From Candidatus Acidiferrales bacterium (GTDB lineage Bacteria > Bacteroidota > Ignavibacteria > Kryptoniales > JAKASW01), in NCBI GenBank assembly GCA_035515795.1, contig DATJAY010000012.1:24532-88531 (forward strand): a DNA stretch of 64,000 nt, read 5' to 3'. Both the position numbers and the translations under genes were made by a program. Shown here in pieces: positions 7,214 to 9,122 of this stretch. Position 1 is the stretch's first letter. Every line of letters starts with the position of its first letter. The notes beneath the pieces were generated by a model. That model was not told the DNA's origin, did not search any database, and worked only from the letters and a program-made list of their open reading frames with translations.

Positions 7214-7959
7214 CTACGCAGGCAAAGACGCAGGATGTTGAGTCTCTTTGGCAGAGATATTCAAAGCGCAAGACCGCCTCGATAAAAAAAGAGCTTGTGC
7301 TCTTTTATATGTATCTCGTAAAATTCGCCGCAAGGGGAATAAGCCTTCCTCCGCGATGCGTATTCAATAATGACGATCTTATGAGCATTGGGATCATCGG
7401 ACTCAGCGAAGCGATCGAGAGATTCGACCCCTACCGTGGAGTGAAGTTTGAAACGTACGCCTCACAGCGAATCCGTGGGATCATGCTGGATGAGATAAGG
7501 AAAGTCGACTGGCTCCCGCGGTCGATCCGTGACAAATATAAGAAGGCCTGGAAATCGCTGAGCGAGCTTGACATGGATAGAATCGACGGCGAGCAGTATG
7601 CCCAGGCCATTAACATGACGGTCAGAGAGTTTGATCGGATAAAAGGTTACCTTGCGAATTCGGAAGCGGTATCACTCACGAAGAGCATCGGAGACGACAT
7701 GACTCTTGAAGATGTGGTAAGCGGTGACAGCGAAGTCGTCGAACAATATGAAGACGACGAAACGAAAGAGCAGCTTGTCGAGATATTGAAGCAGCTTCCT
7801 GAGAGAGAGCGTATGGTGATGACTCTTTACTATTACGAAGAAATCACTTTCAAAGAAATCGGAAAAATCCTAGGCATAAGCGAATCGAGAGTCTCTCAAA
7901 TCCATTCCGAAGTTCTCGATAAAGTCAAGGATCTCTTCAGAAAGGCAGTCGAACTATGA
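7210..7959 (+). CDS. fliA: Flagellar sigma factor sigma-28 (FliA)
   Basis: 249 aa. Region 2 reads [34 protein letters not shown]. Region 4 reads [38 protein letters not shown]. Confidence 0.9.
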   Translation: [249 protein letters not shown]

Positions 7960-9122
7960 TAGAGGTTGGACAATTGACTGACAAATTATCATCGATAAGA
8001 GAGCTCCCCACCTTTCCGACTACGGCGTTGGAAGTGATGAGGCTCGCAAGCGACGCGGAAACGAGCGCAGCAGAACTTTCTCGAATAGTTTCAAGAGATC
8101 CTGCGCTTTCGGCGAGAATACTTCGAGTTGCAAACTCGCCGTATTACGGCTTTGCTAAGAAGATTTCGACGATCGAATGGGCAATAGTAGCCCTTGGTTT
8201 CGAGACGCTTCGCGAGACCGTGCTGTCCCTGACCTTGATCGATCTCTTCAGAGGCGCGGCAATGAAAAACTTCGATCCGCGAAAATTCTGGAAACATGCA
8301 GTCGATACCGCATGCGCAGCGAGGTCGCTCGCGAAGGAAATGAAGAATAGAGTTCCCGGCGAGGCTTATGCTGCCGGTTTGCTCCATGATATCGGAGTCC
8401 TTGTCCTGTATAGGTTTTTCCCGGACGATTTCGCCGAAATTCAAAAATTGGTCGGTCGTGACGCCATGACACTTTCTCAGGCAGAGCTCGTGGTGGTCGG
8501 AACATCTCATGCCGACATCGGAGCATGGCTTGCAGAAAAATGGAATTTTCCTCTGAATTTTGTTGAGGCGATACGATATCATCATGCGCCGGGCTCTGCC
8601 CAAATCAATCCCGAGTTGACCGCGATAGTCCATGTGGCAAATCAGATTGCTTGCTCAGATGGTTATTCATGCTCTGATGATCCGTCAAAATTTGATCCTG
8701 CCGCGGTCCAAATAGTGGGCATCGACAAGCTTGGAGTCTCGGTCGCCTCGCTCGCCGATAAGTATATAAATGATGACTCTTCTTTGGCTGTGAGTATCAA
8801 AGTTCCAATCATGGACTATGCTCTTGGAGATGACGGCCATGACGGGAAAAGAAAGCATAAGAGATCTCTAACGGAAGACACGACCGAAGAGACACTCCGG
8901 AATTTTTTCAAGGCGGCGATTAAGCTCCTCCCGACGACCGAGAGACTCGTGCTGACTTTGAAGCTCTTTGAAGGCTTGGATATGAAGCAGGTTGCAATAG
9001 TGCTGGGGTATGATGAGGCAAGAGTTGCGGAGTATTACAAGAACGCCGTTTCGGTTCTTCAACAAATGGCAGAACGTGCGATACTTACAAACAGGTTGGA
9101 CCAATGGAAAACGAGATACTAA
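7956..9122 (+). CDS. HDOD domain protein with a C-terminal sigma-70 region-4-like HTH
   Basis: The N-terminus shows HDOD hallmarks (LPTFPTTALEVMRL, ANSPYYGF, GLLHDIGVLVL, IRYHHAPG). The C-terminus (nt ~8925-9080) reads LLPTTERLVLTLKLFEGLDMKQVAIVLGYDEARVAEYYKNAVSVLQQ. The start overlaps the fliA stop. Confidence 0.8.
   Translation: MIEVGQLTDKLSSIRELPTFPTTALEVMRLASDAETSAAELSRIVSRDPALSARILRVANSPYYGFAKKISTIEWAIVALGFETLRETVLSLTLIDLFRGAAMKNFDPRKFWKHAVDTACAARSLAKEMKNRVPGEAYAAGLLHDIGVLVLYRFFPDDFAEIQKLVGRDAMTLSQAELVVVGTSHADIGAWLAEKWNFPLNFVEAIRYHHAPGSAQINPELTAIVHVANQIACSDGYSCSDDPSKFDPAAVQIVGIDKLGVSVASLADKYINDDSSLAVSIKVPIMDYALGDDGHDGKRKHKRSLTEDTTEETLRNFFKAAIKLLPTTERLVLTLKLFEGLDMKQVAIVLGYDEARVAEYYKNAVSVLQQMAERAILTNRLDQWKTRY

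Follow-up and report, generated by a model that had tools for sequence, protein, structure and literature searches.

Sigma-factor mimicry is known from PhyR, in which a sigma-like domain fused to a signalling domain works as an anti-anti-sigma factor (PMC4551977). HDOD domains are repeatedly linked to motility. Among the solved HDOD structures, Geobacter 3HC1 holds two iron ions through five histidines and one aspartate, and SadB, which is without three of these metal-binding histidines, serves as a ligand-independent adaptor for proteolysis and is tied to motility and biofilm regulation (PMC12075610). Here we analyse a gene that joins these two worlds. It lies in a 64,000-nucleotide stretch of contig DATJAY010000012.1 (hereafter the window, whose coordinates are used unless another locus is named), at positions 7956–9122 of the plus strand, directly downstream of the sigma-28 gene fliA. 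The open reading frame (ORF), confirmed in the window, encodes 388 residues: an HDOD domain with an intact metal site, a flexible linker and a region 4 of the FliA/WhiG lineage that is without the DNA-reading residues. We refer to this protein as HDOD-sigma4 and to its sigma-like part as the tail. Our preferred reading, to which we give a probability of roughly 0.4, is that HDOD-sigma4 is a signal-gated mimic of sigma-28 region 4, whose tail and FliA region 4 are rivals for the same groove-binding protein and whose HDOD domain acts as the gate. Literature searches for HDOD together with FliA, sigma or anti-sigma factors found no description of this architecture, in line with the original prediction, which was made from the DNA letters and knew of no characterised HDOD-sigma region 4 protein.

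The N-terminal part is a complete HDOD domain. The Pfam HDOD profile (PF08668) aligns over its whole length (positions 1–196 of 196) with residues 17–212, at E = 8.5e-66 and 221.6 bits against a cutoff of 22.9, which places the protein in the HDOD family by a full-length match above the gathering score. A Pfam HD match is also obtained. The assignment had first been made from the motifs ANSPYYGF, GLLHDIGVLVL and IRYHHAPG, all of which are present in the ORF, as is the tail sequence LLPTTERLVLTLKLFEGLDMKQVAIVLGYDEARVAEYYKNAVSVLQQ; the profile search now places it on firm ground. The complete helical domain extends over residues 6–270 (7971–8765, plus strand). Its closest solved relatives by sequence are Geobacter 3HC1 (E = 7e-34) and Shewanella 3M1T, both at about 1e-33, and a Foldseek search with the full-length model returned 3HC1 (E = 1e-10), SadB (9QZK) and 3M1T. 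The metal ligands H114, H144, D145, H185, H209 and H210 align with the 3HC1 motifs and are invariant or at least 90% conserved across the HDOD-sigma4 family, so that the di-metal ligand set is complete. Because this 3HC1-type set is intact, a metal-dependent sensing or catalytic role of the domain is plausible.

HDOD matches dominated the full-length Foldseek search and sigma matches were weak; the tail was therefore modelled separately. In the full-length AlphaFold2 (AF2) model, the all-helical HDOD domain is followed by a disordered linker and a helical C-terminal domain. The linker (residues 275–308; 8778–8879, plus strand) has a pLDDT below 50 and a mean pairwise identity of 0.22, and it is shorter in distant members. 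Profile searches, BLASTP, AF2 and Foldseek all identify residues 310–372 (8883–9071, plus strand) as a sigma-28-type region 4. With the full protein, the Pfam profile Sigma70_r4_2 (PF08281) scores 22.9 bits (E = 6.6e-5), just below its 25.7-bit gathering score; with the tail alone the score is a borderline 25.8 bits (E = 8.6e-6), barely above it. The last 70 residues also match Sigma70_r4 (E = 0.014). The best NCBIfam model for the tail is FliA_WhiG (positions 150–222 of 224, E = 2.6e-9). A BLASTP alignment with the neighbouring FliA covers 101 residues at 28% identity (E = 7e-10); it extends into the FliA 3/4 linker and substantiates the parallel with FliA region 4 noticed in the original prediction.

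A profile of the tail family was compared with the PDB. It finds the WhiG entries 6PFJ/6PFV (E = 1.1e-13) and 7LQ4, the E. coli FliA holoenzyme 6PMI (3e-13), P. aeruginosa FliA 9WSF/9WSM (5e-11) and Aquifex sigma-28 from the FlgM complex 1RP3 (6e-8), whereas extracytoplasmic function (ECF) sigma factors reach about 1e-3 at best. The similarity is well outside what chance would give. The nearest sequences outside the family are WhiG region 4 at 37–40% identity, the matching entries being assembly fragments. Modelled on its own, the tail reaches a pLDDT of 86 and superposes on solved region-4 domains at root-mean-square deviations (rmsd) between 0.7 and 1.4 Å over 51–65 aligned columns, about 1 Å in general. 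Region 4 of sigma factors accounts for 48 of its top 50 Foldseek matches, both sigma-28/FlgM complexes (1RP3, 9WSF) among them. The tail is a sigma-70 region 4 domain of the sigma-28 (FliA/WhiG) type rather than the ECF type. The initial description as "sigma-70 region 4.2 / ECF r4" is thus upheld by profiles and fold for region 4, and replaced for the ECF type, since the FliA/WhiG matches are far better. The significant match and the confident fold also answer the objection that the tail might have neither a region-4 hit nor a helix-turn-helix fold.

Judged by its profile matches, HDOD-sigma4 is not a sigma factor itself. Pfam and NCBIfam scans of the fusion protein found no Sigma70_r2 or other region 2, and its 33.9–37.2 bits with FliA_WhiG (TIGR02479) compare with a cutoff of 189.6, which places it outside the FliA/WhiG family. 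Because region 2 is absent, the protein is unable to act as a sigma factor. For this reason, and with a score so far below the cutoff, the JGI name "RNA polymerase sigma factor" given to family members is wrong. A homolog search with the tail alone brought up short proteins only, among them apparent stand-alone "FliA region 4" proteins of 60–126 residues (L003–L006, P0124–P0140). These were rejected as a separate family, being frameshift fragments of actinobacterial whiG in long-read metagenome assemblies, with an ORF holding only region 2 directly upstream and a xerC/dprA/rpsB neighbourhood.

To compare the tails with genuine region 4, 23 non-identical tails were aligned with 19 FliA/WhiG region 4 sequences, 17 of them from the same loci. 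Alignment columns were mapped to published structures, with a check of the residue numbering against the PDB sequences. Base-specific contacts with the -35 element are made in P. aeruginosa sigma-28 by S224 and Q228, and the S224A or Q228A mutation is detrimental to transcription, flagellation and motility (PMC12784957). The -35 phosphates are touched in E. coli sigma-28 by K208 and R220 (bioRxiv 10.1101/2020.01.02.893370). S224 and Q228 are both kept in 18 of the 19 FliA/WhiG sequences and in 0 of 23 tails. All four DNA contacts are present in 16/19 FliA/WhiG sequences and again in none of the 23 tails, one of which has three; none of the four is left in 11/23 tails, compared with 0/19 FliA/WhiG sequences. 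Arginine at the R220/R225 position is invariant in FliA/WhiG (19/19) and found in five of 23 tails. No part of the tail domain varies more than the recognition helix, which is net acidic: its entropy is 2.39 bits, against 0.94 bits in FliA/WhiG, and the mean net charge of turn plus recognition helix is -0.91, against +1.58 (p = 1.6e-5). The window tail has K344, A355, R356 and E359 at the four contact positions, with A355 and E359 in place of the base contacts. As far as residue conservation tells, with S224 and Q228 never kept together, the tail appears to no longer read the -35 promoter element.

The surface that binds FlgM shows the opposite pattern. We considered the FlgM-contact residues L187, I191, L200, A203, L204, Y206 and L210 of P. 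aeruginosa FliA, whose counterparts line a groove formed in the window tail by F318, I322, L331, T334, L335, L337 and L341. Leucine occupies the L204 position in all 23 tails and the L210 position in 21. The L187 and I191 positions are each hydrophobic in 22/23, the A203 position is A or T in 22/23, and the Y206 position is Y in 15/23 and L in 6/23. The strictest of these residues is also the most telling in FliA itself: L204R weakens FlgM binding from 2.2 to 422 nM (about 190-fold) and leaves motility nearly normal, and according to the authors L204 is a FlgM hot spot that contacts neither DNA nor RNA polymerase (RNAP) (PMC12784957). The E209 position, which in sigma-28 forms a salt bridge to sigma-2, is glycine in 20/23 tails. 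By this measure of conservation, the FlgM-binding groove is retained in the tails.

HDOD-sigma4 belongs to a conserved, uncharacterised family that is clearly real and has so far been found in uncultured bacteria of the Fibrobacteres-Chlorobi-Bacteroidetes (FCB) group (Kryptoniota/Bacteroidota). In a protein search, full-length orthologs (62–100% identity, 383–398 residues) fell into about 41 clusters, which carry the labels "HDOD domain-containing protein", "putative nucleotidyltransferase with HDIG domain" or "RNA polymerase sigma factor". The organism, if these close orthologs have one named, is Candidatus Kryptoniota or a metagenome-assembled genome (MAG) of Bacteroidetes/Bacteroidota. The MAG that contains the window carries the NCBI label "Candidatus Acidoferrales bacterium", to which Candidatus Acidiferrales of the Acidobacteriota is the nearest taxonomic name, at odds with the named close orthologs, all Candidatus Kryptoniota/Bacteroidetes, and the label is probably a taxonomy or binning error. 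An exhaustive profile search of 1.84 billion representative sequences, in which the HDOD profile matched 53,825 representative clusters, added 13 further 50%-identity clusters with both domains (330–365 residues) beyond the window's own. Alignment confirmed these together with P0054 and P0060, giving at least 15 distant clusters at 27–35% identity to the window protein. A last homolog search with a diverse alignment added three new distant members only. The names of the distant members are as uninformative as those of the close ones. The concern that this architecture might be a widespread, already annotated family unrelated to flagella is therefore removed, as the family is not widespread, not functionally annotated and tied to flagellar loci.

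The tail is conserved as strongly as the HDOD domain. In 15 members of the Kryptoniota type, region 4 has a mean pairwise identity of 0.77 and the C-terminal helix one of 0.75; the HDOD domain follows with 0.71, and the linker reaches 0.22. Comparisons with unsaturated synonymous sites give a dN/dS of 0.05–0.08, and of 0.05–0.07 for the C-terminal extension. Because its identity is as high as that of the HDOD domain and dN/dS is low, the tail is, on this comparative evidence, functional and under strong purifying selection. The extension AERAILTNRLDQWKTRY (9072–9119, plus strand), with a helix predicted at residues 380–387, is conserved in the Kryptoniota-type subgroup only and absent or short in distant members.

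The fusion gene is tightly bound to fliA, with which it is encoded in one packed operon. The fliA gene (7210–7959, plus strand) encodes 249 residues and matches TIGR02479 FliA_WhiG above the cutoff (E = 4.5e-61), as well as Sigma70_r2 and Sigma70_r4. At the junction GAACTATGATAG, the ATG at 7956–7958 shares three bases with the end of fliA, whose stop codon TGA is at 7957–7959; the letters read GAA CTA TGA, and the A before TGA begins the ATG of the fusion gene. Direct reading of 7956–7959 (plus strand) thus confirms the ATGA overlap that had been predicted. The public gene call on the source contig gives a product of 388 residues from the same ATG, and the N-terminus MIEVGQL is kept among orthologs, which together make 7956 a credible start. 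The NCBI call for the window protein (P0001) has 382 residues and starts slightly downstream. Two orthologous loci (L011, L012) have, by coordinates, the identical 4-nucleotide (nt) overlap, and in distant members the junction is a gap of 1–13 nt or an overlap of 4 nt.

Linkage was scanned with local hidden Markov models for HDOD, the tail and the N-terminal part of FliA over all fetched loci. Every fusion gene with readable upstream sequence (10/10; nine loci and the window) lies immediately downstream of fliA, as the original prediction had proposed to check, and the synteny holds down to members of 27–35% identity. On every contig that is long enough, the order is flhA, flhF, flhG, a small ORF, fliA, HDOD-sigma4, HDOD, a GAF kinase, an ORF of unknown function, flgF, flgG and flgA. 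The HDOD gene that follows the fusion, HDOD2 (9104–9964, plus strand; 286 residues, Pfam HDOD E = 4e-66), has no tail and overlaps the fusion gene by 19 nt. Its product shares 39% identity with the HDOD domain of the fusion (BLASTP, E = 6e-76). In the Bacteroidetes MAG SJ300 (L013, 3810–7586), fliA is followed by two tandem HDOD-sigma4 genes and then by a tail-less HDOD gene; the fusion gene itself is duplicated in this lineage.

The association of HDOD genes with fliA reaches beyond the fusion. A scan of species-representative genomes used a generic HDOD pattern, and so gives no taxonomic range for the fusion. Among the 80 HDOD loci listed, fliA lies upstream in 11 of the 15 most similar and in none of the other 65. 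It is directly upstream in 10 of the 11 and about 2.6 kb away in the Aminicenantes MAG (L025). In eight of the 11 fliA-linked loci (L014, L015, L017–L021 and L025) the HDOD genes are tail-less, single or in tandem; their MAGs are labelled Latescibacteria, Chlorobiaceae, Bacteroidota, Calditrichia (two), Fibrobacter, Hyphomicrobiales and Aminicenantes. Among the matches listed, these genes encode the closest HDOD relatives of the window protein. The fliA-HDOD gene pair is therefore ancient and broadly distributed in the FCB group and neighbouring lineages, and seems to be without an earlier description. Because tail-less HDOD genes follow fliA in related phyla, the sigma-4 tail looks like a later, lineage-specific addition.

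In a neighbour-joining tree of HDOD domains, the partner copies without a tail are monophyletic, with short branches (bootstrap 65%), and lie beside the lone fliA-linked HDOD of L017. The fusion copies have long branches and fall into two groups, a topology that does not separate one fusion origin from several. HDOD2 thus looks like the conserved ortholog and the fusion like a divergent paralog. The tail probably stems from a partial duplication of fliA, by which region 4 and the 3/4 linker were joined to an HDOD gene that already neighboured fliA. The gene order fliA/HDOD-sigma4/HDOD, together with a FliA similarity that reaches into the 3/4 linker, suggests as a working hypothesis only that a fliA-HDOD unit was duplicated in tandem and that the 3' third of the second fliA then became attached to the first HDOD through an in-frame deletion.

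A reduced form of the fusion exists. In P0123, found on at least three contigs, one of them 3.15 Mb long (L091 5001–5366; L092 438–803), an in-frame deletion joins the first 38 residues to the sigma-4 tail, leaving a protein of 121 residues without the HDOD domain. What is left of the collapsed locus is fliL, a remnant of fliM/flhF, flhG, the small ORF, fliA, the mini-sigma4 gene, HDOD2 and a motB remnant. The trio of fliA, tail and HDOD2 survives the loss of flagellar structural genes in this lineage.

We searched the window for FlgM, the anti-sigma factor of sigma-28. The gene flgJ (16,227–17,075) overlaps flgN (17,062–17,505) and flgK comes next, which leaves no room for flgM in its usual slot, as the original prediction had stated. 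No window ORF scanned, small ORFs included, matches the Pfam FlgM profile (PF04316), and a regular expression for the FlgM-like C-terminal motif found none among the window ORFs. The sigma-28 promoter pattern TAAA-N14-17-CCGATA has 0 matches in the window against 0.47 expected, a difference that carries no information. A literature search for flagellar or FlgM data on Ignavibacterium turned up nothing useful.

The decoy reading brings together the sigma-28-type tail, the lost DNA contacts, the kept groove, the selection on the tail, the obligate link to fliA and the intact HDOD ligands. The tail, having lost DNA reading and kept the groove, would vie with region 4 of FliA for a protein that binds this groove. 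An anti-sigma-28 would be the likeliest such partner, either a FlgM-like protein or the adjacent tail-less HDOD protein. Capture of this partner by the tail would free FliA, amounting to PhyR-like anti-anti-sigma activity by sigma mimicry, and the HDOD domain would control the exposure of the tail by sensing a signal linked to metal, redox state or nucleotides. Sigma factors generally bind the RNAP beta-flap tip with the same face of region 4. Several points weigh against the decoy. The retained groove residues are in part fold-core and thus structural; because of this, and because of the shared beta-flap face, groove conservation does not single out an anti-sigma partner. The window tail retains the phosphate contacts K344 and R356, which would allow weak non-specific DNA binding. 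As a partner for the candidate decoy tail, FlgM was found neither in the 64-kb window nor among the genes of the 9.1 kb upstream, the rest of the genome not having been searched. All of the evidence is computational and the organisms are uncultured.

If the tail is nevertheless such a decoy, sigma mimicry would extend beyond PhyR to sigma-28, and these poorly studied bacteria would have a FlgM-independent checkpoint of flagellar expression. It would further point to a direct action on FliA by the tail-less HDOD genes that are so widely linked to fliA. A more specific form of the idea is an HDOD switch that governs sigma-28 in place of a secreted FlgM in Kryptoniota and related Bacteroidota. 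In this form, the tail-less HDOD protein would be an anti-sigma-28 of a new class that grips FliA region 4 and HDOD-sigma4 the anti-anti-sigma, with the di-metal centres and perhaps the GAF kinase setting the balance. We regard this elaboration as speculative and, as a whole, unlikely. If true, it would be the second known case of sigma-factor mimicry and the first for a group-3 sigma factor, and HDOD domains would gain a defined molecular function. The locus offers a concrete handle on HDOD function in any case: an HDOD domain is fused to a degenerate last domain of FliA and locked beside fliA across deep divergence.

The groove evidence also bears on a second explanation, in which the tail docks on the beta-flap tip of RNAP and either blocks sigma factors as a dominant negative or brings the HDOD domain to the polymerase. 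The tail still has the sigma-4 fold and the region 4.1 motif LPxxE+xxLxLxYxEGL, the loss of DNA contacts is equally compatible with such a role, and tight co-expression with FliA would suit a competitor. However, the residue conserved most strictly, at the L204 position, is reported to lie outside the interaction with RNAP and DNA. A free region 4 on the flap would moreover disturb all sigma factors, which would be odd for a regulator dedicated to one operon. Beta-flap contacts are not listed in the E. coli sigma-28 paper, so that on this source the flap and FlgM surfaces could not be told apart on the tail. We consider an RNAP binder rather improbable, though it is the foremost competitor of the decoy.

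A third possibility is an HDOD-controlled transcription factor whose region-4 helix-turn-helix binds -35-like or other operators of flagellar promoters. Region 4.2 is a helix-turn-helix, and many regulators use the related LuxR/GerE-type folds as their output domains. Within the Kryptoniota subgroup, the phosphate-contact residues K344 and R356 are kept and the recognition helix is conserved. Against this stand the base contacts, never kept together in any tail, and the complete loss of all four contacts in nearly half of them. The recognition helix is hypervariable and acidic although the genomic context, and presumably with it the set of targets, is invariant. The original suggestion of a reader of -35 elements in late flagellar promoters is accordingly disfavoured, since the sigma-28 DNA-contact residues are not conserved in the family, and we judge DNA binding of this kind to be quite unlikely.

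Slightly less probable still is a SadB-like adaptor, in which the HDOD domain would control the stability or localisation of FliA, for example by delivery to a protease, and the tail would be just a handle for dimerisation or for recognition of FliA or FliA-bound partners. SadB delivers the regulator AmrZ for proteolysis with no ligand in its HDOD pocket (PMC12075610), its structure 9QZK is a top structural match of the fusion, and the relation between HDOD and FliA is older than the tail, as the tail-less genes after fliA in other phyla indicate. Yet the family keeps the full metal ligand set, three histidines of which SadB is without, and this speaks for a function that depends on a ligand or a metal. 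The module has no conserved protease or adaptor partner, and the adaptor model gives no reason for a sigma-4 as the added domain. A non-functional relic of rearrangement or an assembly artefact, for which the P0123 deletion variant in its decaying flagellar locus might speak, is effectively refuted by about 41 close and at least 15 distant clusters from independent samples, by the strong purifying selection on the tail and by the survival of the tail even in P0123.

The surroundings of the fusion gene are those of one long same-strand flagellar cluster. The window contains fliP, fliQ, fliR, flhB, flhA, flhF, flhG, the small ORF, fliA, HDOD-sigma4 and HDOD2, followed by the GAF kinase gene, a gene for a 223-residue protein, flgF, flgG, flgA, flgH, flgI, flgJ, flgN, flgK and flgL, and then by motA, motB, fliW, csrA and genes for a REC-Hpt protein and a CheY-like receiver. 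Within 9.1 kb upstream of the window, the contig carries fliJ, fliK, flgD, flgE, flbD, fliL, fliM, fliN and fliO. Upstream of fliA and in the same packed transcription unit are flhF and flhG (4868–6965, plus strand), identified by SRP54 and ParA-type matches in orthologous loci and on the source contig. Between flhG and fliA, and overlapping both, is an ORF for a small predicted membrane protein of 82 residues (6965–7213, plus strand) without a family match. All related loci have counterparts of 87–94 residues, among them L001, L007, the P0149 contig and L091.

Downstream of HDOD2, a histidine kinase with GAF, HisKA and HATPase domains by Pfam is encoded at 9986–11,377 (plus strand; start from the public gene call). 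It occupies the same position in L001, L002, L007 and the P0149 contig, and no response-regulator gene adjoins it. The 223-residue protein encoded between the kinase gene and flgF (11,377–12,048, plus strand) has one hydrophobic segment and weak matches to DUF6115 at its C-terminus (E = 0.008) and to DUF2802; every long related locus has an ORF without Pfam matches (194–361 residues) between the kinase and flgF. Further downstream, fliW (21,113–21,691, plus strand; PF02623, E = 1e-27; real start probably inside the ORF) directly follows motB, and csrA (21,707–21,988, plus strand; PF02599, E = 2e-24) follows fliW. The FliW-CsrA system, which controls flagellin at the post-transcriptional level, is thus present in a cluster where no FlgM was found. 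After csrA come the REC-Hpt protein and the single-domain CheY-like receiver (21,981–23,077, plus strand), which may be partners of the orphan GAF kinase.

Compared with known systems, what has been established by test is that the fusion is an HDOD family member with a sigma-70 region-4 tail. The closest parallel in design is PhyR/NepR/sigma-EcfG of the alphaproteobacterial general stress response. Like the fusion, PhyR combines a sigma-derived domain that is not a sigma factor with a signalling domain, and titration of an anti-sigma is proposed for both. PhyR carries an N-terminal ECF-type sigma2 and sigma4 and a C-terminal receiver, whereas the fusion has a C-terminal sigma-28 region 4 with part of the 3/4 linker, and an HDOD domain. 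The PhyR model NF006623 matches the tail at E = 1.7e-5 with 20.9–24.7 bits, far from its cutoff of 240, and Pfam and NCBIfam found no Response_reg match and no sigma-2-like region in the fusion protein. On these scores HDOD-sigma4 is not a member of the PhyR family, and the resemblance would lie in the proposed mechanism only.

In the FliA region 4/FlgM complexes (1RP3/1SC5, 9WSF), the domain bound by FlgM is homologous to the tail, which keeps the hydrophobic residues that hold the FlgM helices. FliA has regions 2 and 3 and the -35 contacts, whereas the tail is without both regions and without the S224/Q228 pair, and has mostly lost K208 and R220. The RsiG-WhiG-c-di-GMP system (6PFJ/6PFV, 7LQ4) places a sigma of the sigma-28 family under a protein partner that depends on a small molecule, and WhiG region 4 is the best PDB match of the tail. 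RsiG itself is a helical anti-sigma without an HDOD or sigma-like domain, and c-di-GMP is part of the RsiG-WhiG system. SadB (9QZK), Geobacter 3HC1 and Campylobacter Cj0248 (1VQR), the last of which is also linked to motility, share the fold of the HDOD domain, and none of them has a sigma-derived domain. The di-iron site of 3HC1 matches the metal ligands of the fusion, unlike SadB with its YbaK-like N-domain and degenerate pocket. What would be new here is a mimic that consists of region 4 of a group-3 sigma factor alone, is placed at the C-terminus and has an HDOD domain instead of a receiver, and that may work in a PhyR-like manner.

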